A DNA stretch of 64,000 nucleotides from Squalus acanthias. Its lineage: Eukaryota. Each line of letters begins with the position of its first letter. Position 1 is the first letter of the stretch. Location of the stretch: contig CM059435.1 of NCBI GenBank assembly GCA_030390025.1, forward strand, positions 49,600,001 to 49,664,000. The letters run 5' to 3'. Below, in pieces: positions 3,433 through 50,622 of the stretch. The position numbers and the translations under genes were made by a program. The notes below the pieces were generated by a model, which worked only from the letters and a program-made list of their open reading frames with translations, ran no database searches and had not been told where the DNA came from.

Positions 3433-3939
3433 GGGGGAAAAATTCGGTACCTTAGCGCCTCCCGTTAGCGGCAGCAGATGGCACTAACGGGACACTAGAG
3501 CATTATTGCCGGGGCGAGACAAATCCAACGCCACACAGCAAATCCCGCCCCTCCCCCTGCAGTGCCACTACTAACAGTTATCGCCGGGAGCCTCAATGCC
3601 AGGTGGATTGTGACGTCAGTGAGTGTGCAACACTCACTGGCTGCCCGATCTGCAAAATTGATTGCCGCCACCTACCTTAGCACCTGGAGGGAACAGTGAC
3701 AGGGAGAGCTGACGTGAAGCAATGGGAAGCCGGCTCCAGGGACGTTATTTAAAGGAATCATCAGTAATGAGTCACAGCTTTAGGTTAGTGGAGTTTCAGT
3801 GCTTTCTTGTCAGTTTCACATAGTGCAACAGTCTCATTCCATAATTTCAAGATTATTTAGTATCAGGAGTATTGTGGCAACTAAAAAGTAGCTAAATTTA
3901 TTCTTAAAAAAATTCAAACTGCTACACTTGGTTACATTA

Positions 3940-5052
3940 ATGGGGCTGCACTGGCAGTCGACCTCACCCTCCAAGATCTACGGTGGAGGGTGTGAAGGCA
4001 GCGAGAAAGACTGGAACATGTAGCCAGAGGGTGAATGAAGACAATCAGGGCTCTCAACAGGAGAACTCCGAGGGTATTCCGAGAGCACTTCTCTTACCTT
4101 CAATTAAGCGAGGAGCAGTGTATTAGAAGGCTCTGCTTCACCAAGGAGATGGTCACGGAACTCTGCCACCTCCTGCAACCAGACCTCCAGCTTCAGATCA
4201 GGGTGACCACGGCTCCCTCAGTGGCAGTCAAGGTCACCATCGCCCTCAATTTCTTTGCCAGGGGATCCTTCCAGTCTGTAACAGGAGACATAGCTAACAT
4301 CTCAGCAGTTCGCTGTCCATCGCTGCATCTGGGAGGTCACAGAGGCTCTCTACAGTAAGAGATGTGATAACATTTCCTTCCCCATCACCAGAGAGTAGCA
4401 GGACAAGCATGCATGTGGCTTTGCCAGGTTAGCGGGATTCCCCATGGTGCAGGGTGCCATTGCCTGCATCCACGTTGCTTTGCGGGCACCACATAATAAT
4501 CCTGAGATCTTCCATAACTACAAAGGCTACCACTCACTTAATGTGCAGTCGGTGTGTGACCACAGACAGCGAATCCTCAATGTCAATGCCCGTATCCTGA
4601 CAGCAACCATGATACCTTCATCCTGTGCCAGACAAGGGCTATCCACTCTCCACCTGGCTCATGACTCCCTCCACAACCCCAACACTCCTGCCCAGCACTC
4701 ATATAATGAGAGCCATACTGCCACCAGGAACATCATTTAGCAGACCATCGGGGTGTTCAAGCAATGGTTCCGTTGTCTTGACTGCTCGGGAGGAGTCCTC
4801 CAGAACTCAGCTGAGCAGGTGTCCCATTACATTGTGGTCTGCTGCATGCTCCACAACTTGGTCATCATGAGGACCCAGCCCTTGCCATAAGGGATTGTGG
4901 GACCACCTCAAGAGGAGGAAGAGGGAGAGGGAGAGGAGGATAAGGAGGAAGAGGAAGACGAGGAGGACGAGGATGAAGAGGAACTGGACAGCCACTCAAT
5001 CGGCCTTCCGGAAAGGCGGTCCTTGATCGCCTCATCAGACTGCGGTTTGAAT
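3940..5052 (+). pseudogene. Harbinger DDE transposase pseudogene
   Basis: Fragments LSEEQCIRRLCF, VAVKVTIALNFFARGSFQ, VQGAIACIHVAL, KGYHSLNVQ, DKGYPLSTWLMTP and a poly-Glu tail. Has stops, frameshifts and a deletion relative to 21130-22290. Confidence 0.9.
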
Positions 5053-5269
5053 GAATTAAACCCAAGATCCCTGTTGCTCACCACATCCCCATCATTCCAT
5101 CCCTGTCGCAGGCCATATCACAGCACAAAGCTGAAATGAGACACACCACAAAAGAATCCAAACTAGATTAATAAATTTATCACAAATCAGTGAACACATA
5201 TTTTCAACAAAAATATTAACTATTCACACTTGTGCAATCCCTTAGTGCCTCTTGTTACAGTGCCTTTGC

Positions 5270-7092
5270 CTACTCTAGTGCTCTATGAAGTGTTGGCCTA
5301 GTGGCTGCAGCAGGGCTAGTGGAAGGCTGCTGAGTGTCTGTGCGGGAGACTTCAGGTGGCCTTGCAGGACGCCCTCGAACAGCTCTGGGCCTGGAAAGCC
5401 CGGCTGTAAACAGCACTACCTCAGCATGGGCGGCAGCAGTCTGGGCTGGCTGGATGACAGGCAGCGACAAGGGCAATGGCGGAGTGGCAGTGGTGGGAGC
5501 AGGAATGCTGTCATCCTGAGAGAGGACAGCGGGTTCCTGCTCCAGTGACCCACTGCCACTCCCCCGGGGCAGCACCTCAGCATCCCTAGCAATCTGCTGG
5601 AGCACAGATTGCTGGCCTGCTGCGACACTGTGAAAGCCCCAGTTGACGGCAGGAGACCCAGCCATGATGGCAGCAGTCAGAGCTTGCGTGGCATCAAGCT
5701 GAGACTGCATGAGAGCAGTCTGAGATTGGATGCCACTAAGCATAGACTGCATTACAGCACTAAGATGTCGTGTGGCTTCCGCCTGTGCTTCAGTGGAAGC
5801 TGACAGATCGCCCATCACACATGGCATCAGGTCTGGTTCGCCACGGTCTCTCTGGGAGTCTACCATCCTATGCAGACTGGAAATGATGGGCTCCATGGTG
5901 TGCGCAGAGCTTTGTGCAATGTGGGAGGTGGACTCCTCCACGCTCCTTATCATTGCCGAGAGGCTCTCGGGCACCCTTGCCATTGCATCTATCATCTTCG
6001 TGTGCATGCCCATCACACTTCTTCTAAATGCCTCCCCATCAAGTTCCTCATCTGAGTCCTATTAGGCAGAACTCGCGCGCGAACTCGCCCTCCAGGGAGC
6101 TGACACCCGAGCTACCCTTTCTCCCTGGCCTTGCTGCAGCCCACTCGTCACTGGTGCCTCACCCTGGACAGATCCCGCTACTATACTAGCCTCTAATGAA
6201 CGCGTAGTGCCAGTATCTGAGCTGGTGCCTGCGGATGAGAGATGCATGATGCAGTGTGTTCTTCCTCCTCCTCTTCTCCACCTCGCTCTCTACCATGCCC
6301 TCAGGGACAGGCTGCTCAGATGCTTGCTCATTATCTGAAAGCATAAAGACACAAGAGTCGGTGAGGGGATGGGGGCAGGAAGGGAGAAATGCATGCATAC
6401 AGCATGATTAGCTGGAAAGTGCAAAACGCTTGTGAGATGAGGGTGAAGTGGAATGTGAAAAGAAGGAGTAGGGATGAACATACCGCATCACCGGTGGCCA
6501 TGGCACCCACCACCTGGTGCCCAATAATCTGCAGCACTCTTATTTTCCAACACAGACAGTAGTTGGGTGTCGGCTTGTCCCCCGCCTGTGCGCTCCTGCT
6601 CCCTCCTGTTGTGAGCCACCTTGGCCTGCAAGAGAAAGGAAAGTGTGAGTGAGTGTGGAGCAATGTGTTTCGGTGATGTGCCTGTCATAGTTGAATAGCT
6701 GTCATTGTGTGCAAGGTGTGAGATGTGGGTGTAATTGTTGGTTGGTAGAGATTGTTGGTGGGTGAGTGCTGGGGGTGTGGTGCTTTGGGCAGTGTGTGCA
6801 GACTGAGGTGCAGATAGTGGTATGTAGCATTTGTTGAAGCATTCACTCACCATGATTAGCTGAGTGAGGTCTTAAATTTCTTCCTGCACTATGTGTGGGC
6901 CCTGGGGAGCACAGTGCTGCCCGACAAGTGCTGCACTACCTCCCTCCACATGGTGCGGAAGACTTGCGGTGATGGCCTCCTGCCACTTGCCGGGTAGAGC
7001 ACCGCCCTCCGTCTCTCCACAGCGAACACCAATGCCTCCAATGCTTGATCGCTGAATCTGTGGGCTCTCTCCCTGGGGCGTGGATCTGCCAT
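5270..7092 (-). pseudogene. Harbinger Myb/SANT-like DNA-binding gene pseudogene (3 exons)
   Basis: Exon 1 MADPRPRERAHRFSDQALEALV..WREVV (stop before CRKKF). Exon 2 AKVAHNRREQERTGGG follows a TTGCAG acceptor. Exon 3 includes ORF 5270-6016. Colinear with 18996-20817. Confidence 0.85.
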
Positions 7093-7240
7093 GGGTACAG
7101 CTGCTTCAGTCCTCCGGCTCCTTCTCCTTGGCCTGCTGCTGCTTGCTGAAGCAGCTGCACAGCCAGAAATGCTGAGAATGAGGTTCGGCAGCATCAATGA
7201 ACCTCCCCTTTAAGTACTGGGAAAAACCTGTGGCAATCAT

Positions 7241-7923
7241 GGGCCAGATATTCCGATCGCAGGCCTCCCGCGGGCGGAGGGCTGCAATCTGAAAAAATCT
7301 GCGCCCTTACCTGAGGGCTCCCGGGAGGCGCACAGTTCCGATGCTGGGCCTCTCCAAACTGCCGGTGCGCAGGGCCCACGTATCCCAGAGGTGCAGGTAG
7401 TTTGTAGTGTCCCTAGGATCACGTGGGCCATGGGGAGCCAATCAGTGAAGGGAATCTCCATTCATACATTTGACAGGAAGACCTGTCAATTATATGAGTG
7501 GAAATCACCCCCAAAACATCGTAAAACTTCAAATAAATTAAAAAAAAAATCATATTTTTAAAATGACTTGAAATTACATAAATTAACTATTTTAAACAAC
7601 ATTTTAAATGTTTGAAAAAAATAATTAAAGCTTTTAACGGGGCTAAAAATAAACTTACCTTTCTTTAAAGTGTTTTTAAATGATAAATCAGTGGAATTTT
7701 TTTTTTACCAGACGCAAGAATTGTAAGTGTTTTCTGCGGGCGGAGGGTCTCCAAAAAGCGGAACTCTCCGCCCACAGAGGTCCTTCTCCCGAGCTTTCTT
7801 GACAGATCGGAAATGCCTGTTTCCAGCGCATGCGCAGTGCATGCCTGAAACCAGCATTTCCAATGTCCCTACGGGTGGGTACACAGCACGTACCCACCCG
7901 TAGGGATCGGAATATCCAGGCCC
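7241..7923. mobile_element. Harbinger-type MITE nested in Harbinger copy A
   Basis: TIRs GGGCCAGATATTCCGATC / GATCGGAATATCCAGGCCC; CAT TSD (7238-7240, 7924-7926); AT-rich core. Same family as 41257-41961. Confidence 0.9.
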
Positions 7924-7973
7924 CATGACTTGCGATTAGACTGCACCTGATATTGGTCCACCCTTTCAGTGTA

Positions 7974-8755
7974 GCTCTTTTAGTGGAAGCAATAACCAAA
8001 CAAGCTAACTTAACAGAAACATTAAATGAAACTTAACAACTTAAATTGAAACATTTTTGTCGGAGGTGATGATGCACTCCAGTCCCTGCGGTACCCACCG
8101 GTCGCGGAAGGCCTCGAGCGTGCCGGCGGACACCGCCTGCTCCATCTCCAGGGCCACCCGGGCGCGAACGTGGCCGCGGAAGAGAGGCAGGCAGTCGGGC
8201 CGAACGACCCCCTCGACCGCCCGCTGCCTGGACCAGTTGATGGCCTTTTTGGCCAGGCCCAGGAGCAGTCCTACGAGGAGGTCCTCCGATCTGTCCCCTC
8301 CCCTCCGCACCGGGTGACCAAAGATCAGGAGCGTGGGACTGAAGTGCAGCCAAAAATCGAGGAGCAGCCCCTTCAAATAATGGAAGAGGGGCTGCAACCT
8401 CTTATATTCTATATTTAAATGAAAAACAGACTCCTCCAGGCCGCAAAAATGGCAAGCAGCCTGGGAGTAGTGAACCTATTTAAAACCCTATTGCACGGGA
8501 CTGCTCCGTGCAACACCCTCCAGGCCAAGTCCCCAATAGATAAAGGGAGGACTCCCGCATAGAGAGCCCTCCATTGGGGACCTCCGCCTCCGCCGGACAG
8601 CAAGATGGTACGCCAAGGCGTGTCCGGACGGCAGACAAAGATGGCAAAGTGGAGAGTGTGCAGGAGCGGCCCATATAGGAAGCCCCTCCGCGCTGAATGA
8701 AAAGGCATAGAGGGCATTTCCCCGAGACAGCTCAAGTTGTGAGGCGCCGGCTCCC
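7974..8755 (-). mobile_element. Tx1-clade LINE, 5'-truncated ORF2 C-terminus (copy 1)
   Basis: DLAWRVLHGAVPCN..(CxxC)..LQPLFHYLKGLLL..LLLGLAKKAINWSRQ is the zinc-knuckle C-terminus of Tx1/L1-group ORF2. Confidence 0.8.
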
Positions 8756-8768
8756 CCCTTTGAGTGTA

Positions 8769-9552
8769 CTCTTTTTTTTATATGGGTACCAAATCAAAAA
8801 CTGGAAATCAATAAAACTTTAAATAAAACTTAACAACTCAAATTAACATTGTGTTGGCCGGGGTGACGATGCACTCCAGTCCCCGCGGTGCCCACCGGTC
8901 GCGGAAAAACTCAAGCGTGCCGGCGGACACCGCGTGCTCCATCTCCAGGGCCACCCGGGTGCGAACATGGCCACGGAAGAGAGGCAGGCAATCGGGCCGA
9001 ATGACCCCCTCGACCGCCCGCTGCCTGGACCAATTAATGGCTTTTTTAGCCAGGCCCAGGAGCAGTCCTACGAGGAGGTCCTCCGACCTGCCCGCTCCCC
9101 TCCGCACCGGGTGACCGTAGATCAGGAGCGTGGGGCTGAAGTGCAACCAAAAATTGAGGAGCAGCCCCTTCAAATAATGAAAGAGGGGCTGCAACCTCTC
9201 ACATTCCACATAAATGTGAAACACGGACTCCTCCAGGCCGCAAAAATGGCAAGCAGCCTGGGAGTAGTGAACCTATTTAAAACCCTATTGCACGGGACTG
9301 CTCCGTGCAACACCCTCCAGGCCAAGTCCCCAATAGATAAAGGGAGGACTCCCGCATAGAGAGCCCTCCATTGGGGACCTCCGCCTCCGCCAGACAGCAA
9401 GCTGGTACGCCAAGGCGTGTCCGGACGGCAGACGAAGATGGCAAAGTGGAGAGTGTGCAGGAGCGGCCCATATAGGAAGCCCCTCTGCGCAGAATGAAAA
9501 GGCATGGAGGGCATTTCCCCGAGACAGCTCAAGTTGTGAGGCGCTGGCTCCC
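8769..9552 (-). mobile_element. Tx1-clade LINE, 5'-truncated ORF2 C-terminus (copy 2)
   Basis: ORFs 8838-9224 and 9170-9532 (ACHFCGLEESVFHIYVEC across a frameshift). T-tract at 8772-8779 is the poly(A) on the minus strand. Confidence 0.8.
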
Positions 9553-9729
9553 CCCTTTGAGTGTAATGCCAATGAGCTTGGGCTTAAAGATTTGAATTAG
9601 CGCTCCAATCATTTCTTTGAGCAGTGAGCATGAATTTTGCATGCAGTCTAAAGCATTAGCACCTGGCGCTAATTCTCCAACTTTTCCAATGATACCGCCC
9701 ATTCCTGGGCTATAATGAATTTCTAGCCC

Positions 9730-10251: not shown

Positions 10252-12420
10252 GGGGGGAGAAATCGGGTATCGCCCCGTTTGGGGCTCTAATATTTGAAAT
10301 TTTGAAAATTTAGTGCGAGGTGCTAAGGATTCTGAACTTCTACTAAATTGGGTGTTAACGCCCCAGGAGGGAAGTGGGGCACTAAATCAAGCGCTAATGA
10401 CCTCAGTGGGGCACTACAGGGACGCTATCAGCAGAACGCTAATGAATTTTAGGTGCAATGCATTCAGCAATGATCCTTCACACTGGTTCCTTCCAGCTCT
10501 TAAAGGGGAGGTTGCATCATTGTGTAGATGCTCATTTTCAGCATTGCTGGCTTTGAGGCGACCTACGAGCAACTGAATCCCCTGATGGCTATGGCTGTTC
10601 CCACTCCCAGGAAAAGAGCTCATCGGTTCACAGACGTGGCATTGGAAGCATTGGTGGCTGGAGTGGAGCGAAGGAGGACAATGCTATTCCCGGCCACTGT
10701 AAGAAGGCCATCGCCCCAGGTGTTCAGGACAATGTGGAGGGAAGCGGCCCAGGAGGCCTCGCCCAGTAGTGTGGTGGAACGCAGCCTGACAGTGCCGCAA
10801 GAAATTCAACGACCTCACTCAGGAGGAGCGAGTGCTGCGACTCATTGGGCAGCAGGTGGTGGGCGCTGTGGCCGTCGGCAATGTCAACCCTGTTGGGGGC
10901 AAAAACAGTATCTTCAGCCCCTCTCCTTCTCTCATCCCACTTACCCCTCACACCACAAACCTTTCTCACTTTCCACCTCCTGAGAATGTCTGCATTCCTT
11001 GCTCCATTCCTGCCCCACTGTCCTCACCTTAACACGAATCTTGTGCCTTTATGCTTTCAGAGAATCAGCAACCAGATGACTAGCCTGTCCCTGAGCCTCC
11101 CACTGAGAGTGAGGAAGAAGAGGCGGAGGAGCAAAGCACCGCGTCACTGCATCTCTCACCCGCAGGCACCACCTCAGATACTGGCACTACACGATCTTTA
11201 GAGGCAGGTTTAGTAGAGGGGTCTGCACTAGGTGATGCACTGGGGTCGAGCGGGCTGCAGCAAGACCAGGGGGAAAGGATAGCTCAGGAGCCAGAGGGCG
11301 AGTTCGTGTGCGAGTTCTGCTGCACAGGACACAGATGAGGACCTCGATGAGGAGGCATTTACAAGAAGGGTGATGGGCATGCACACCGAGATGATAGGTA
11401 CAATGGCAAGGGTGCCCAAGAGCCCCTCGGCAATGGTAAGGAGTGTGGAGAGTCTACCTCCAACATTGCATAGAGCTCTGCGCACACCATGGAGCCCATC
11501 TTTTGCAGTCTGCAAAGGATGGTGCACTCCCAGCGAGACCGTGGCGACTTAGACCTCATGCTGCGTGTGATGGGCAATGTCTCAGTTTTCATTGCGGAAG
11601 CCACGCAATGTCTTAGTGCTGTAATGCAGTCTATGGTTGATGCCATCGATTCTCAGACTGCTCTCATGCAGTCTCAGCTTGATGCCACGCAAGCTCTGAC
11701 TGCTGCCAACGTCGCTGGCGTCCACCACAGTCCACTGGAGATCTCACAGTGTTGCAGCAGGCCAGCAATCTGTGCTCCAGCAGATTGGTAGGGATGCTGA
11801 GGTGCTGCCCCAGGGGAGTGGGAGTGGGTCAGTGGAGCAGGAACCTGCTGTCCTCTCTCAGGATGACAGCATTCCTGATCCCACCACTGTCACTCCACCA
11901 TTGTACTTGTCGCTGCCTGTCATCCAGCCAGCCCAGACTGCGGCCGCCCAGCCTGAGGTGGTGCAGTGTACAGCCGGGCCTTCCAGGCCCAGAGCTGGAC
12001 GAGGGCATCCTGCAAAGCCATCTGTAGTCTCTGGCACCGACACTCAGCAGCCTTCCACAAGCCTTGTTGCAGCCACTGGGGAGACACTATGTAGGAGCAC
12101 TAGATTAGGAAAGGGGACTGTAAAGAGGGGAGGCAAGGGTTTGCACAAGGATGATAAGTCAATATTGTTGTATATATATGGTTAATGGTTTTTAATAAAT
12201 TTATTACTGGAATGTTGCAGATTGGGTGCTGTGTCTGATTTCAGTTCTGGGGTGTGGTATGGAATCACAAAGTGAATGATGGCAACGTGTTCAGCAACTG
12301 GAACGAGGACTTGAACTCACTGGAAACGAAGTCTGATGAGGCGGTCACGGACTGACCTTGCAGAACGCCGATTGAGTAGCTGCCTCCTCCGTCACTGCTG
12401 TTCCTGATACACTTCCTGCA
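10252..12420 (-). mobile_element. Truncated Harbinger (copy B): one end, Myb/SANT pseudogene on + strand, trace of transposase 3' end
   Basis: Starts GGGGGGAGAAATCGGGTATCGCCCCGTTTGGGG, like 18639. ORF 10528-10983 contains RAHRFTDVALEALV..WREAA. 11060-12150 is homologous to 5270-6340. Confidence 0.8.
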
Positions 12421-14930: not shown

Positions 14931-15562
14931 TTCGCTAAGGCATACACATCAAATAACATTTAAAAAACATTCTCAAAGCCCATATCACCTTGAAAGTTGC
15001 TTATATATAGTCTTATGTTCTTGTGGGGAAGGTAAAGGCCCCAATTCAATCTCAGTAGTTTTATAGCTGACATCACATTAGAGAAAGTTGGAATGTTGGT
15101 CTTACCTTGTTATGTAGATATGGTCACATTCATTTATGTTTAAAAGTTAAAATTCAAATGTAACATAGCACACCAAGAATATAGCAGTCAACCTCACGCA
15201 TTAATATAATGCTGAAAAGTCAACAAAACTCAAGTAAAAATGCAAAATATTACATGGAACAATTGTACTCAGCAGTGACTAATTATTTAACTTTAATTTT
15301 TTAAACTATAGTAATTTTCAAATGCTTTCATTTTTTTTGTAAAATTGTATTTCCATATAGGTGATCATTGGAATTAAAGTTCATGCAGAACAAGCTCTGG
15401 TCTTTAAAGACCCCAAGTCATAATTTGTGTTGCTATCTCGATGCACTGGTTTGCAGGAAACAACCACGAAAGCAAACTCCAGGATCTGTGGAGATAGAAT
15501 ACGATAGTATTTCATCTACCGATGCACCCTTTATACACCTACACTGACACTCTCAATATCTG

Positions 15563-16312
15563 ATGAATCACTTTCCTCTACAAGGCAGTATGGAATATCC
15601 AGGACAACAGTGGAAGCAGTGGGGAGAGTATTATCCGGAGATTTACTCCCAAGGCTTTTATGAAGGGTATTCGTTAAACACAGTTCTCGGTAATCATGCA
15701 GATTATTTTCACCATCAGAATTATTTCAACCACCCTACAATGTCATTGAGCAGGAGGTCACAGAATGTTATCCTAAGCCATGAAGGATCTTCATCTCACA
15801 TCATTCAACATCAACAGCTTGAACATTATCAGCAAACCACCCAATTACAAAGAACAGGATTTCCCGATGGAAATTTCTCATCGTCTGTCCCTCGAATGAT
15901 TGTCACATCTCGGCCTGGCCTGACTGCTTATGGAGCTACAGCAGAAGCAGTAAAGCAAAATGAAACACCCAAAATGTGCATCCTCGCTCTTGCCATGATG
16001 ATAGCTGGCATCCCCACAGTCCCTGTACCCAGAGTGAAAGCAGAGGACATGATGTTGGCAGCGCAAAGATTCAGAGCCGACAACCCAAACCTCAGTGGAG
16101 ATATAGATGAAATGTTGAAGGATAAGAGAGATAGAAAAGGGACCTTTACCAAGGATCAAGTTTTCCCCATTAACAGTGCAGATGAAAGGATCAACTGGAA
16201 GAGAACGAGAGACAGTACCATTCGCTATCCTCAAATCAATGTCTTGGTATTAGAGAGTGATGATCGGGCAGATGCAAAGAAACTTAAATCAAATGACTTG
16301 ATGCTCATATGA
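15563..16312 (+). CDS. SPATA25: SPATA25-like (spermatogenesis-associated protein 25) single coding exon, 249 aa
   Basis: Uninterrupted non-repeat ORF. Motif [33 protein letters not shown] closely matches the recalled mammalian SPATA25 core [33 protein letters not shown]. Polypyrimidine/TAG acceptor ends at 15360, an in-frame stop lies upstream (15545-15547), and ATTAAA occurs at about 16585. Confidence 0.8.
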   Translation: [249 protein letters not shown]

Positions 16313-18638: not shown

Positions 18639-18995
18639 GGGGGAAAAATTAGGTCGCACCCCGTTTGGGGCGCAAATATCGTCTGGACGCAAAAATTAGC
18701 GCCTGGCGCTAATTATCACCACTGACTGGAAACTTCACTTTTACCGCCCCGGGAGGTGAGTGGAGCGCTAAATCAGGCGCTGCACACCTGTCTTAAGGCG
18801 CAAAGGCCGAGCAGTGAGGCGCTAACTCAGCGCGCGAGCGCAGCGCAGGGGCTGCCAGTTAGCGAGGGAACACAGTCACACTGGCACCGGCCAGTTCTTA
18901 AAGGGGGGGGCCAACTTGCTCCCCAGCCACACCCTGCTCATTGCAGCCTTGAATCTCGGCCTGGAGAGACCTGTGAATCCATTTTGCTGCCAAGG

Positions 18996-20817
18996 ATGGA
19001 GAGGGTGAGAGAACGAGCTCAGCGCTTCACCGAGCGGGCCTTCGATGCTCTGGTTGGTGCGGTGGAGCGCAGAAGATCTATACTCTTCCCTGAGAGTGGC
19101 AGGAGGCCTTTGCCGCGCGAGTACAGAAGAGTGTGGAGGGAGGTGGCTCAGAGCGTCTCCTCCAGGAGCATGGTGCCCAGGACCCATGTTCAATGCCGCA
19201 AAAAGTTCAACGACCTCACTCGGGTCGTCAGGGTGAGTGGCTTTTTCTCAATACCTCTCCATCCCTCCATCTCAACCTCACTCTATGGCCAGAGGATCTT
19301 AAAACCCCAATGCACAACACTCATCCAACACCTATGGCCCTTTCATGAAACACACACACACATTCCACACTTTGCATACAGTAAGGGCTATTCACCTATG
19401 GGAGGCACATCAGGCAAGACCATGGCTGCATTCAGTAAGGGCTATTCACCTATGGGAGGCACATCAGGCAAGACCATGGCTGTATATTTACTCAGATGCT
19501 GTCCATTTTCTTGCAGGCCAAGCTGGCGCATAATAGGAGACAGCAGCAACGGACAGGTGGAGGGCGGCCTCAGCTGCAACCCCTCAGCGATCTTGAGGAG
19601 CGCGTCCACAGGATTGTGGCAAGCCGGGTGATCGGTCCCGTCGCCACTGGAGACGCCGACCCCGTTCTGGACAGCAATGGTAAGGTCATCACCTTTTTGT
19701 CCTCTGTCCTTCCACTTGTCCCTCACAACACCAGCCTTTGACACTTTCAATCCAACTTGCTAACTCGCTGCACTTATTCCTCCCTTACTGCCACCCTGTC
19801 CTCACGCGAAAGCCACTCTTGTACCTCCCTGCTTTCAGATGGTGATTCACCAGCTGAGGAGACGGGCCCTGAAGCTGCCAGTGGGAGTGAAGCTGCAGCC
19901 GAGGAGGAAGAGGAAGCCGGAGCATCAGTGCCACCCTCTCCCGAGGAAGCCCATGCCCACACTGGGAACACGCCTTCCCTGGAGGGGAGCAGGGGGGAAG
20001 GGTCTGATGAGGGTGAAGCTCCAGGACCCAGCGGGCTGCAGCAACGCCATGGGGGTAGGGAAGAACGGGGGGCCTTCTCCCCAGAGGGAGAGTATGCCAG
20101 CGACTCCTACTGCAATGGACGCAGAGGAGGAGCGGCTGATCGCAGAAATGAACACCCAGGCGGTGGGCATGCACACTGAGCTCATGGGTGCAGTGGGAAG
20201 GGTGCCCGAATGCATTGAGTCACTGGCAAGGAGTGTGGAGCACTTCGCTGTAGCACAGGCGGATGCCACACTAAAGCTTAGTGCTGCAATTCAGTCACTG
20301 ACTGCCGTGATCCCATCTCTGACTGCTCTCATGCAGACTCAGATTGAGGCCACGCGAGCACTGACTGCTGCCAACCTCGATGGTTCGTTCACATGTCCCC
20401 GGGGCTCTCACCGCGCCGCAGCAGGCCAGCAATCTGTGCTCCAGCAGATTGCTCCGGATGCTGAAGTGCTGCCCCGTGGGAGTGCCAGTGTGTCGGGCGA
20501 GCAGGGAGTTGCTGTCCTCTCTCACGATGACAGCATTCCTGCTGCCAACACTGTCACTTCTCCACTGCACTTGCCACCAGCCTGTAGGACAGACTGCTGC
20601 CGCCCATGCAGAGTTGGTGCAGTCTGCAGCCGGGCCCTCCAGGCCCAGAACTGGTCGAGGCCGTCCTTCAGGGGCATCTGCAGTGTCAGGGTCTGACAAT
20701 CAGCAGCCTTCCACCAGCCTTGCTGCAGCCACTGAGGTCCCATTACGGAGGAGCAGTAGGGTTAGAAGGGGGGAAGTGCGCAAGGGAAGGAGATCACCCT
20801 CGAAGGGCAAAAAGTAG
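18996..20817 (+). pseudogene. Harbinger Myb/SANT-like protein gene; exons 18996-19232, 19517-19679, 19839-20817; two frameshifts in exon 3
   Basis: MERVRERAQRFTERAFDALV..WREVAQ..QCRKKFNDL (Myb/SANT domain). GT-AG introns have consistent phases (0, 1). Exon 3 needs frame changes near 20070 and 20575. Confidence 0.85.
19379..19482 (+). repeat. Tandem duplication (about 54-bp unit x2) in Myb/SANT intron 1
   Basis: CAGTAAGGGCTATTCACCTATGGGAGGCACATCAGGCAAGACCATGGCTG occurs twice. Confidence 0.9.
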
Positions 20818-21129
20818 GAGGTGTGACAAAATGCTGGTCATTTTTTTATTAAAGGCCGAGGTTCGTGGTCCAACTTTTGTCTAGTGTTTTGGACATTATC
20901 TCCAGGTTTTGAGAACCAGTTATGTTAATGACTGTTTTTTTGTGTTTATTTCTATGAGTTTGTCATGAGGAAATGACACACACAGAGTTTGTAAAATAAA
21001 TAAGTTTTTGTATTCAAAATATACATGTTTGGTGTTTGGAATCATTGGTGCCTTGGCCGGCTTAGGGGTTGCGTGCTGGGTTCATTGATGTTGTTAGCAA
21101 TGGCAGAAGCCATTTCCACAGCAGGGGCC

Positions 21130-22290
21130 CTAGAAGCGGCTTGCTATCAGCCGTTGACGGACGGCCCTTGCAGTTTCACCATTGTGGGCCGCCCTCCCGC
21201 CTTGGTGCTGCTGATGATCATCCTCCTCGTCCTCTTCCTCCTCTTCCTCCTCCTCCTCTGGTGGTGCTCCAAGGCCTGGTGGCATTGGCTGGGTCCTGAC
21301 GATTGCCATGTTATGCAACATGCAGCACACAACTACGAAGTTGGATACTCGCTCAGGCGAGTACTGCAGGGCTCCTCCAGAATGGTCGAGACAGCGGAAC
21401 CGTTGCTTCAGCACGCCGATTGTGCACTCAATGATGTTCCTGGTAGCTTGATGGCTCTCGTTGTACCGCAGCTCAGCAGGGGTGTTGGGCGTACGGAGCG
21501 GTGTCATCAGCCAGGTGCTCAATGGATACCCCTTGTCCCCGAGAAGCCAACCAACTGGCTGATGCGGTGCCTCGAAAAGTTCTGCCACAGTAGTCTGGCG
21601 CAGGATGAAAGCATCGTGGCAGCTGCCAGGATAGTGGGCATTAACAGCGAGTATCAGCTGTCTGTGGTCACAGACCAACTGAACATTCAAGGAATGGAAC
21701 CCCTTTCTGTTCCGGAATTCCTCGGCATTCTCATGTGGAGTACGCAAAGCCACATGCGTGCAGTCAATGGCGCCCTGCACCATGGGGAAGCCCGCTATCC
21801 TCGCAAAGCCCAGAGCGCGGTCACGCTGCTTGTCTGGGGTCATGGGGAAAGAGATGAACTCTCGTCTCCTTTTAAAGAGGGCATTTGTGACCTGCCGGAT
21901 GCAGCAATGCACCACGAACTGGGAGATATTGGCGAGGTCCCCAGCAGCAGCTTGAAATGAGCCAGTAGCATAGAAGTTGAGAGCCACTGTGACCTTCACT
22001 GCCACCGACGGAGACGTCCTGGACCTCAGTTGAGGCTGCAGATCTGGCTGCAGCAGGTGGCAGAGCTCAGTGACCACCTCCTTGCTGAATCGCAGCCTTC
22101 GCAAACACAGCTCCTCAGACATATGAATGTAGGAGAGCTGTTCACGATATACCCTGGGAGGGTAAGCTCTCCTGTACATACGCCTGTTGGCCCTCCTCCG
22201 TCTGGCCATCATTGCCACTCTCTCTCTGCGTCTCTGTGTCCTCCGATTCAGCTGGAGCAGGACGACGCCCCCATTCAGTGCAGCCCCCAT
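21130..22290 (-). CDS. Intact Harbinger (HARBI1-family) DDE transposase, 386 aa from MGAAL
   Basis: Open ORF with GAIDCTHV, RKGFHSLNVQ, GSCHDAFIL, LLGDKGYP, RNIIECTIGVLKQRFRCL and CCMLHN. The start is homologous to the ATG at 3940. Confidence 0.93.
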   Translation of the reverse strand: MGAALNGGVVLLQLNRRTQRRRERVAMMARRRRANRRMYRRAYPPRVYREQLSYIHMSEELCLRRLRFSKEVVTELCHLLQPDLQPQLRSRTSPSVAVKVTVALNFYATGSFQAAAGDLANISQFVVHCCIRQVTNALFKRRREFISFPMTPDKQRDRALGFARIAGFPMVQGAIDCTHVALRTPHENAEEFRNRKGFHSLNVQLVCDHRQLILAVNAHYPGSCHDAFILRQTTVAELFEAPHQPVGWLLGDKGYPLSTWLMTPLRTPNTPAELRYNESHQATRNIIECTIGVLKQRFRCLDHSGGALQYSPERVSNFVVVCCMLHNMAIVRTQPMPPGLGAPPEEEEEEEEEDEEDDHQQHQGGRAAHNGETARAVRQRLIASRF

Positions 22291-23994
22291 AGTCTCTTTG
22301 CAAGCAAAGTTATGAAGGACAGCAACCAAAGTACCAGCGAAGTTAGGATCAGTAGGCAAAACTACCTCACAAAGCGTTGACTCAATGCAGAAGTCTCTCT
22401 TTCTCTCTCTCCGAATCTCTCTCTCTCTCTCTCAGAACGAGTGGTGCAAAAATGTCAACCACAGAAAAAGACAGGAAGAGGCCCCCTTTAAATAGCGACC
22501 CCCCAGCCCCACAGCGATTGATAGCGTTCCAGTCTTCCGGTCGTTGGATGCGCCAGGCGGTTAGGCAGGGGGCGCCACTCAATTTCCGCTCCGGGGCGCC
22601 ACAAGGGCGTTGCACCATGGAATGACGTCACAATCTGCGCGCGCAGGTGGTCGCGGCGGTAAAGTTTAGCGCCGCCGCACAATGTCTAGTTAAGTTCCCG
22701 AGCGGCGCAAACATCGCTGCGCCCGGGCGCTAGCGGCTTTGCGCCCCATTAGCGCCCTCTTAAGGCGCTAACGGGAGGCGCAACCAACTGAATTTTCCCC
22801 CCTATATTTCCACAGAGAATGCTTTATTCCTTGCAATTACTATACAGTTTGATACAGTACTTATTTAGATTTGAGTCATTATTGCAGGCCTGTTTGTCTT
22901 TGAGCATTTCTTTATTAAGGTCCAATGTATGTTAATAGAGTTCAACTATGAATGTTTTTAATCCAAGGAAATTTGTAAACAGTTTGATACTTCACTTTTT
23001 CTTTTCTGTGTCATTGATGCAGGCCTGCGTGTCCTTGGCTGTCTCTTTATTAAGGTTCAAAGTGCACTAATTGAGTTCTACGTAGAATGAACCATATCTT
23101 ACAAAGTATGGATGCAGTTTATTCTGTTATTGGCCGATAAGTCCGTTTTTTGGAGAAGGGTCTGGATCTCGTTATTTATGTATCCTGCTTGAAAGCTTTC
23201 TTTTTGTGCCTCGTTGTTCATTGAAGCCAGTTTGTGCTCTGTTATTTGTTGTATTAAATTCAGGATTGTCACTTTAATTCCCTGGTCTGTTACTCTATGA
23301 GATCACAGCCTGGTCTGTTCAGCTGGTTCAGACTTATTCTCTCAGCCACTGAAAGTTGACATAGCCTTTTGCGGGGGGTGGGTGGGTGGGGGGGCTGATG
23401 TATTGCGCTGTGCTTGGGTGGACATTGCCTTTCGACAATCTTCAGACTGTCTGCGAGCAAGGGAGAAGGTGGCAAGCTGTGTACTGATGATGGAGGCAAT
23501 CAGTGGCTGAACACCTCTGCTAAGTGCTGCAGCTCAAATCGATGACTCTTCTGAATGGGAATCACCCCTTAGCTCCAGGGCCCTGCAGCTCAGGATCTTC
23601 TGGTTCCATGGGCTCCTCGGCAGGAACATCCAGGCTGATCCCTTCCCATAACGCAAAATTGTGCAGAATGCAGCAGGCCACAGTTATCTTTGCCACCTTT
23701 TCTGCAAGACACCTCTGGCCTGTTCAGGCACCTGAACCGGCCTCTCGAAGGTCTTCTCAACCACCTGCCTGGTTGCCACACACGCGCGATTGTAATGCTC
23801 CTCTGCTGCATCATGCGTCACTTGGTACAACGTCAGTAGCCATGGAATTGGGGGTTAGTCCTTGTCCCCCAGTACCCAACCGTCAATTTACCTACCCTCA
23901 ATGAGTAACTGTGCAATGAACAGCGGAGGATAAAGGCCTGTTGCGTGTCGACTTGCAGTATGCGTTGCTGGGCATCACACGTAAGGGAGTAGAA

Positions 23995-41106: not shown

Positions 41107-41256
41107 GTCCCCATCAAGCCAGGGCTCCCCACAACCACAGGATCCACAGATGCTTTATGTTGGCTCTAAAAACTGTTCTCTGTCACAACCAAAGTAGGGA
41201 CCGTATTTTGAGCAATAAGAAAAATGGTTTGCTAATTAGTGGCTTCAACAAACCTG

Positions 41257-41961
41257 GGCCCGGATATTCCGATCCCTATGGGTGTGTACGTGCTGTGTAC
41301 CCACCCGTAGGGACATCGGAAATGCCGGTTTCAGGCATGCACAGCGCATGTGCTGAAAACTGGTATTTCTGATCTGTCCGGGCTTTCTGGAGCCCCTCCG
41401 CCTGCACAACACCTGAAGAATTCTTACGCCTGGTAAAAGCAGGTGTAAGGCTTGCTTTTACCAGGATAAGAGTTGAAAAAAGTAAAAAAAAATTCCAGTC
41501 ATTTTCCAGTCATTTATCATTTAAAAATACTTTAAAAAAGGTAAGTTTATTTTTAGCCCCTGTAAAAAACTTTAATTATTTTTTTCAAAAAATTAATTTT
41601 TGTTTAATATATTTAATTTATTGTAATTTCAACTAATTTAAAAATGTGATGTATTTTTAAAATGTATTTAATGTTTTAAAGTGTTTTTGGAGTGATCTCC
41701 ATTCATATATTTGACAGGTCTATCTGTCAAGTGTATGAAGGGAGATTCCCTTCTTTGATTGGCTCCCCATGGCCCACGTGATCACAGGGATGCTGTGAAC
41801 TGCCTGTGTCTCTGAGATACGTGGGCCCTGCGCACTTGGAGTTTGGAGAGGCCCAGGATCGGAACTATATGCACCTCGGGAGCCCTCAGGTAAGTGCGCA
41901 GATTTTTTTCCAGATCGGAGGCCTCCGTACGCGGGAAGCCTCCGATCGGAAAATACGGCCC
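41257..41961. mobile_element. Harbinger-type MITE (same family as 7241-7923, opposite orientation)
   Basis: TIRs GGCCCGGATATTCCGATC / GATCGGAAAATACGGCCC; probable CTG TSD (boundary uncertain by 1 bp). Confidence 0.88.
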
Positions 41962-49900: not shown

Positions 49901-50622
49901 GGGCCTGAATTTGCGATCGGAGGCTTCCCGTGGGCGGATGCCTCCGATCATCAAAAAATCTATGCATTTACCTAGTGGTCGCGATCCTGGGCCTCTCCTG
50001 ATAGAAATGCGTAGAGGCCCACATATCCCAGGGGCGCATGTGATTCGCAAGCGCCCCTGGATCACGTGGGTCAGCCCAACCAATAAAAGAAGAGAATCCC
50101 CATTCGTACTTATGGGAGTTCTGTACGTATGGAACTGTCATAAGTATGAATGGGGATGACTTAAAAAATACACGAATACATGAAATAATTTTTTTTTAAT
50201 TATGTATGTAAAATGAATTAAAATGGCATTTAATTAAATATTTTAAACAAAAATTTAATTTTTTGAAAAAGAAATTTATGGCTAAATATAAACTTATTGA
50301 ACAGGGTTTTTAATGTATAAGTGAGTGATAAAATATTATTTTTCTATTTTTAAAAACTCTTATGCTGGTAAAAGCAGGCCTTATACCAGACGTAAGAATT
50401 CCTTGGCCTTTCAGCAGGCGGAACTTGTGCAAATAGCGCAACTCTCCACCCGCGGAGACCCATCTCCCGGGCACGCGGATGATGCATCAAGAGAATTCTT
50501 GACAGATCGCAAGTGCCGGGTTTCAGCGCATGCACTTCACATGCCTAAACCCAGAACTTGCGCGGCTCCTACGGGCGCGTGCGCACCTCGTACACACCCG
50601 TGGGGGTCGCAAAGTACGGCCC
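49901..50622. mobile_element. Harbinger-type MITE related to the 7241/41257 family
   Basis: TIRs GGGCCTGAATTTGCGATC / GTCGCAAAGTACGGCCC; flanks AGT / AAT; shared internal blocks. Confidence 0.8.

Follow-up and report, generated by a model that had tools for sequence, protein, structure and literature searches.

The closest described counterpart of the elements considered here is Tx1-9_AMi of crocodilians, a Tx1-clade LINE that inserts about 300 bp from the ends of Harbinger transposons (accessible sections of PMC4494074). The same sections describe tandem copies of SINEU-3/Tx1-Mar in Mariner-N4_AMi, which sandwich the target-site duplication (TSD) through sequential insertion, and a transposon-derived 5′ extension of SINEU-2B, for which transcription from the flank was proposed. 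Tx1L of Xenopus laevis, found in Tx1D, likewise inserts in a DNA transposon and is described as stringent for one site in a piggyBac-type element (PMC1950540 and PMC4494074). In the tandem R1 arrays of Drosophila, a new copy goes into the TSD that flanks the resident on its 5′ side, and at R1 and R2 5′ junctions target sequence carried in the RNA anneals and makes precise junctions (PMC2718515, accessible text). R9 of rotifers has a 126-bp TSD attributed to a distant staggered cut (PMC6895275), and the abstract of the same paper treats the joining of the LINE 5′ end and the start of second-strand synthesis as poorly understood.

Here we analyze a 64,000-nucleotide stretch of the Squalus acanthias genome (the window), in which two Tx1 fragments stand one behind the other inside a Harbinger. 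As with Tx1-9_AMi, a Tx1-clade LINE prefers a position near one end of several related Harbinger families, but at 164 bp from that end rather than about 300 bp; the accessible account of Tx1-9_AMi, compared by description alone, mentions no long duplication, shared truncation or Harbinger-derived head (PMC4494074). The ORF2 of the dogfish family is 50% identical to that of Tx1L over 99% of its length, but where Tx1L is stringent, the dogfish family follows a loose 5-6-bp motif with a hot spot that takes about 15% of its ends. Tandem copies sandwiching a TSD are common to this locus and to SINEU-3/Tx1-Mar, for which hitch-hiking was also tested and rejected (PMC4494074, available text). In the same text the SINEU-2B extension runs up to the insertion point, whereas the source of the head found here lies 100-150 bp downstream of the nick, and the promoter-like region therefore has to be duplicated. 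The likeness to R1 and R2 lies in entry at the upstream TSD and annealing at the 5′ junction; the difference is that annealing there is to upstream rDNA, with few bases deleted or kept (PMC2718515, accessible text), and here would involve downstream homology. Distinct truncations have been cited as the sign of double insertion of transposable elements (PMC5932611, available portion), whereas most stacked copies here share one. Finally, R9 is also a non-LTR element with a target duplication above 100 bp, but by a staggered cut (PMC6895275, accessible portion), whereas truncated copies of one and the same APE element leave about 12-15 bp here and full-length copies with homology to the target 140-165 bp. 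The initial annotation of the window had proposed a candidate for an undescribed system; Tx1 targeting of Harbingers and TSD-centered tandem copies are already in the available text of PMC4494074. For a Tx1 that duplicates a downstream promoter, or for stacks with a shared truncation, no report turned up in the literature searched, which lies outside most subscription papers and Repbase.

The host Harbinger and its promoter-like region

The host is a decayed element at 3433..9729, with terminal inverted repeats at both ends and a TCT duplication on both sides, lying inside a LINE fragment that we take to be of CR1 type. TWA is the typical form of the 3-bp PIF/Harbinger TSD, and the TCT of the host departs from that. 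The right end is the same in most of 29 other copies, a few having altered termini. A broken transposase in interrupted plus-strand frames (4035..4870) matches DDE_Tnp_4 (E=5.8e-7 on 4399-4737), and this match, together with the inverted repeats and the 3-bp TSD, upholds the earlier statement that the stack lies inside a Harbinger. The second gene, of Myb/SANT type, occupies 5270..7092 on the minus strand (ATG at 7092-7090); its Myb_DNA-bind_5 match is weak (E=0.052, below the cut-off and confined to exon 1).

In front of the Myb gene, on the minus strand, lie a TATA-like motif (7214-7208) and an initiator-like motif (7182-7175), which together span 7175..7214 and, read as motifs, may constitute the Myb promoter. 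The Harbinger sequence just downstream of the Tx1 site (7927..7960, minus strand) carries a CCAAT motif at 7956-7952. Counted from the insertion site, the order is CCAAT (+18), TATA-like (+75), initiator-like (+106) and Myb ATG (+196), names that we assume to apply from the usual consensus, and the segment is a putative promoter on that reading. In the window it is split by a nested MITE of about 685 bp (7241..7923), which has inverted repeats and a CAT duplication, ends 34 bp from the Tx1 stack and is absent at the same place in empty Harbinger copies; two diverged relatives of the MITE occur in the window at 41256-41961 and 49901-50612 (77% and 62%). The window also holds two more Harbinger-type elements, at 10253-12382 and 18639-22627, neither of which carries the 13-mer described below and the second of which has an open 433-aa DDE_Tnp_4 frame, and an exon of a host gene matching SPATA25 at 15548-16312 on the plus strand (E=2e-16).

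The Tx1 stack

The stack stands 164 bp inside the Myb-side end of the host. The initial annotation had noted three copies of a 13-mer bracketing two Tx1 fragments in the same orientation, and the coordinates are confirmed, with both fragments on the minus strand. The upstream 13-mer (9553..9565), the middle one (8756..8768) and the downstream one (7961..7973, the C variant, one base away from the empty-site form) are the only matches in the window at up to one mismatch; 0.42 would be expected, and three were reached in 2 of 100 shuffles. Beyond the upstream copy, the terminal 164 bp of the Harbinger (9566..9729, minus strand) run to the inverted repeat at the outer end, as delimited by comparison with other Harbinger copies. 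Copy A (7974..8755) is a 5′-truncated fragment of 782 nt from an older lineage whose closest relatives are 87-90% identical to it; copy B fills 8769..9552. The two begin at the identical nucleotide, that is, at the same truncation point, and are 96.5% identical over the first 340 nt, 90.3% over the next 360 and 61% in the 3′ UTR, so the annotated difference between their 3′ UTRs stands. Both were said to end in an A-tract and GAG, which is correct for B; in A one extra C follows.

These 13-mers are real target-site duplications, because empty Harbinger copies carry the sequence once: a single uninterrupted 13-mer is present in 25 of the 29 best other copies of this Harbinger end, as the check proposed at the outset had anticipated, and in 4 of the 29 a Tx1 sits at exactly that point, with differing truncations. 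Exact-pattern counts over the genome gave 666 empty and 57 filled junctions, with controls at 0. The 13-mer is Harbinger sequence; an origin in Tx1 was ruled out, as only TACAC recurs, and that is genomic at 5′ junctions.

The frame of copy B matches the C-terminal part of Tx1L ORF2 from Xenopus with 50% identity across 135 aa, and full-length relatives of about 7.2 kb carry ORF1 and ORF2 with Exo_endo_phos, RVT_1 and zf-RVT domains. The open 1306-aa ORF2 of one such relative matches YTX2 (Tx1L) with 1391 bits at 50% identity and 99% coverage, against 284 bits for human L1 ORF2p, its most identical protein matches (69-75%) being in a ray and a shark; the APE and RT domains were found in another copy than this one. 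The family shows 5′ truncation, a defined 3′ end and short TSDs, of about 12-15 bp and detected at 88 of 152 3′ ends. Judged by these likenesses, it is a member of the Tx1 clade (L1 group) of non-LTR retrotransposons.

A chimeric copy, and stacked pairs elsewhere

Within copy B two histories are apparent. The 3′ part (8769..9225) belongs to a young lineage and is 96.3% identical to 25 B-like copies; the 5′ part (9226..9552) is 89.6% identical to the same young peers, which are 95.3% identical to each other there. Conversely, over the first 340 nt, where A and B are 96.5% identical, the 36 other copies reach at most 91.5%, and six variants are private to A and B. Trees built from 25 of 38 rows, near-identical array copies having been left out, make the 5′ parts of A and B sisters (100/100) within an older A-like group (100/99) and place the 3′ part of B in the young group (99/95). 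The switch falls between 9266 and 9225. Copy B is a chimera, with about 300 nt likely copied from its older neighbor A and a young 3′ part, and since its front is A-like and its 3′ part young, A probably came first, with B entering at the upstream 13-mer and taking its front from A. The same order is weakly consistent with the 13-mers, of which the two upstream ones match each other and the downstream one carries a change. The initial annotation was right to suggest re-insertion at the regenerated TSD; a plain tandem duplication is ruled out by the unlike tails and the chimeric B.

Common truncation is not peculiar to the window. Of 32 adjacent Tx1 pairs in the loci examined, 24 share their truncation within 2 nt, against 268 of 21,461 pairs (1.2%) by chance across loci (binomial p=2e-39); starts differ in 8 pairs, one of which, L037, is not a true TSD stack. 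The first 50 nt of stacked pairs are 96.6% alike against a background of 90.3% (p=3e-5), and the shared part is nearer to the downstream unit's relatives in 16 pairs and to those of the upstream unit in 5. The notion that stacking is specific to Harbingers has to be given up, as 14 of the 24 same-start pairs lie elsewhere.

Target preference

Terminal junctions were sampled with a tail-plus-TACAC pattern, which gave 1008 genome matches against 70 for a control, and 99 of the first 100 listed were examined; this sample, like the 5′ UTR sample below, was chosen by exact pattern and chromosome order. Twelve of the 99 have no Tx1 body by BLAST, 9 abut another Tx1, 12 are at the Harbinger site and 66 are elsewhere. 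The proposed tabulation of flanks thus does show enrichment at the Harbinger site, which holds 15% of terminal junctions (12 of 78), but the other 66 are not there, and the 15% is below the 20% in one repeat that the available text of PMC4494074 sets for a target-specific family. None of the 29 closest relatives of copy A is at the Harbinger site and 5 of 29 are for copy B, and the insertions at the site are spread over three or more Harbinger subfamilies. At sites outside Harbingers the family targets (T)TACAC(C/T), and 77 such sites show little signal beyond it; in a subset not picked by that pattern, TACAC starts the target in 19 of 33 sites. In the 3.7-Gb genome there are 474,687 RTTACACT sites, and candidates for this Harbinger end number 3,709 or more, from which we estimate an enrichment of about 7-20-fold over the 8-mer expectation if 10,000 to 3,700 sites are assumed, the 10,000 being an assumed ceiling. 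The Harbinger position is a hot spot, a preference rather than a strict target: of the targeting originally claimed, repeated independent insertion holds, and strictness does not.

Truncated Tx1 is joined to the Harbinger end at 37 loci, with differing truncations or tails. Twenty pairs of near-equal truncation, from 13 of these loci, were compared and are 76-92% alike with differing tails, and therefore represent independent insertions; nowhere among the 37 was the same Tx1 insertion found in Harbinger copies at different loci. The Tx1-Harbinger junction of the window has 2 genome matches, both inside the window itself, which also rules out a non-autonomous element of fixed length starting where the window copies do. 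The suggestion that Tx1 hitch-hikes on the Harbinger consequently finds no support, no moved Harbinger-plus-Tx1 composite, of the Tx1c-like kind that travels as a unit, having been seen. When the junction was looked for in other organisms, both elements and the empty site proved to be present in contigs of four sequencing runs, and none of the contigs listed bridges the Tx1-Harbinger junction. Two further observations concern the position of insertion. At L210, in a Harbinger variant with a TACAC on the opposite strand, the Tx1 is inserted the other way round, some 30 bp off the usual position. Six independent insertions (L110, L369, L067, L094, L207 and L096) are truncated within 5 nt of one another, at a microhomology hot spot where a G-run in Tx1 resembles how the 13-mer ends.

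Full-length copies, heads and the long duplication

A pattern combining a Harbinger-like head with the Tx1 5′ UTR gave 17 matches in 10 loci, 9 of which lie at the Harbinger site and are preceded by the Harbinger end; as the pattern selects for the head, this is not a share of all full-length copies. At loci legible at both ends, the Harbinger end and a 13-mer are followed by about 140-165 bp of downstream Harbinger and the Tx1, after which come a second 13-mer, that downstream Harbinger stretch once more, and Myb. Full-length copies at the Harbinger site are thus flanked by a duplication of about 140-165 bp instead of about 13 bp, and it spans the promoter-like region of the Myb gene. The long duplicate is local in origin: it is 98.4% identical to the downstream copy of its own locus and 84.7% to other loci (7 loci, an eighth being left out for want of an anchor match), and private deletions and subfamily variants occur on both sides of the Tx1. 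At one Harbinger site (L268-L274, G000:C19:33.34-33.39 Mb) seven Tx1 units form an array with the same local promoter-like duplicate before each unit, and the last unit ends in a deletion into Myb. In the L097 stack, the junction of a truncated Tx1 lies about 130-140 bp further down the Harbinger, at a short match, which gives a long duplication without full-length RNA.

The 5′ UTR pattern alone gave 394 matches, of which 70 were read and 64 retained after removal of 6 known inner array units. Among the 64 5′-complete loci, a second abundant repeat accounts for 55 and the Harbinger site, with its long duplication, for 5, while 4 lie elsewhere, one of them without a Tx1 body; the Harbinger is therefore not the main home of intact elements. 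L344, where no Tx1 body follows, was dropped as a full-length copy. The second repeat, presumably Penelope-like, is occupied by a sister Tx1 lineage (L171-L199, L291-L360), often in 7.2-kb arrays, with duplications of 15 bp or 45-54 bp and, in some cases, a remnant of the Harbinger head; Rfam gave no match in four loci of this repeat. At L365, about 125 nt of a third repeat, which also has a TACAC site, stand between full-length Tx1 units.

Full-length heads begin within the stretch corresponding to 7175..7214 (+101 to +111 from the site in empty copies). Clean heads outside Harbingers, three in number, start at Harbinger +101 (with a 12-bp TSD at both ends), +104 and +111, the 3′ end of one not being reached, and full-length copies elsewhere have short TSDs where both ends are seen. 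Ten copies at the second repeat start at Harbinger +136. Judging by these starts in genomic copies, Tx1 RNA likely begins in the Myb leader. L281 has a head at +101 but its 3′ end in a Harbinger; with no matching TSD downstream, it was rejected as a clean non-Harbinger insertion and left ambiguous. A stack at a foreign site, L138, carries the Harbinger 13-mer inside, as would be expected of a read-through source at the Harbinger site. A TACAC-plus-head pattern had 6 matches, comprising 2 Tx1 of full-length type, 2 Harbingers with a deletion or insertion and 2 short derivatives. Short Tx1 derivatives with a leader common to four loci (L377/L382, L132, L227, L375) consist of a Harbinger-like head, a piece of 5′ UTR and then the tail, about 320 nt at L377, and possibly form a non-autonomous family. 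Two full-length copies outside Harbingers, L361 and L363, have one extra G between TSD and head. Such a G is what a copied cap would leave, as in L1.

Discussion

What is established comprises the structures of the loci, the fact that the long duplicate arose locally, the chimeric copy B and the genome counts. In our judgment there is about a 0.7 probability that the stack arose by two successive insertions at a hot spot, the second completing its 5′ end by copying the first, and that this LINE makes a homology-dependent 5′ join and leaves a duplicated Harbinger promoter-like region. The bottom strand would be nicked and priming would occur at TACAC, a motif that may be set either by the endonuclease or by base pairing of read-through RNA; the new cDNA would then pair with homologous top-strand DNA downstream of the nick, and the interval from nick to pairing point would be duplicated from the chromosome. 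With an older Tx1 downstream, the product would be a stack with a common truncation point and new tails, as in the window. The first 40-60 nt of full-length RNA would be the Harbinger Myb leader; for such an RNA at an empty Harbinger site, the same pairing step would yield the local duplication of 140-165 bp, placing a copy of the Myb promoter-like region before the new Tx1 and leaving the original before Myb, and Tx1 may then be transcribed from the duplicated promoter.

A more far-reaching version, which we hold tentatively and at slightly less than even odds, is that a LINE with no working promoter of its own takes one by duplication, a supply that would renew itself at each Harbinger insertion, the same pairing building the stacks with shared fronts and sister lineages appearing to use other repeats. 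The LINE would insert 100 bp upstream of the start site of the transposon gene, its RNA would open with the leader of that gene, and its cDNA would anneal downstream and bring a copy of the local promoter before the new element, with the host gene keeping its own.

The strongest competitor takes the Harbinger site as nothing more than an accessible, well-matched TACAC and the head as an old capture, Tx1 having its own internal promoter; the long duplication would be a by-product and Tx1 independent of the Harbinger promoter. The preponderance of terminal junctions elsewhere, the full-length copies outside Harbingers and a sister lineage that thrives at another repeat with a mere remnant of the head are all congenial to it. 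An old capture does not readily explain, however, why the heads outside Harbingers vary and, by eye, echo different Harbinger variants, or why they begin 26-36 nt past the TATA-like motif, which none of them contains. Moreover, of the 5′-complete copies off the second repeat, 5 of 8 are at the Harbinger site; for all ends the figure is 12 of 78 (p=0.007, a post hoc comparison with small numbers). We regard independence from the Harbinger promoter as doubtful.

Unequal exchange between 13-mers could also have duplicated A in tandem, with the 3′ half of the upstream unit overwritten later by young cDNA or gene conversion. The same chimera and the same common start would result, and the age polarity that successive insertion might be thought to leave is not significant over all stacks (in 15 pairs the upstream unit is the younger, in 9 the older; p=0.34), with low power and a short shared front in most stacks. 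This account needs two events per unit, however, and predicts unconverted identical pairs, when identical tails were found in 0 of 24 same-start pairs; nor does it explain the long local duplications around single full-length copies. It seems to us quite improbable. A strictly Harbinger-specific Tx1 spreading by hitch-hiking on the transposon can be set aside as highly improbable, for although enrichment at one position in three or more Harbinger subfamilies is strong, most ends lie elsewhere, the window junction is unique to the window and the Harbinger-site loci compared are independent insertions.

Taken by themselves, a stacked pair and a Tx1 preference for a Harbinger are ordinary. What successive insertion with a homology-dependent 5′ join would add to them is that join, with its two products, and likely promoter capture. 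In one element, homology downstream of the nick would leave two readable products, chimeric stacks with a shared start and duplications of 140-165 bp beside short ones, and with many natural replicates of both in this genome, the 5′-joining step therefore becomes testable. If the promoter reading is true, it would explain why this LINE favors the subterminal region of a transposon, the site supplying transcription and not transport, and the same step, if sister lineages use it on other repeats, would be a general route by which Tx1 elements could change target and promoter together.
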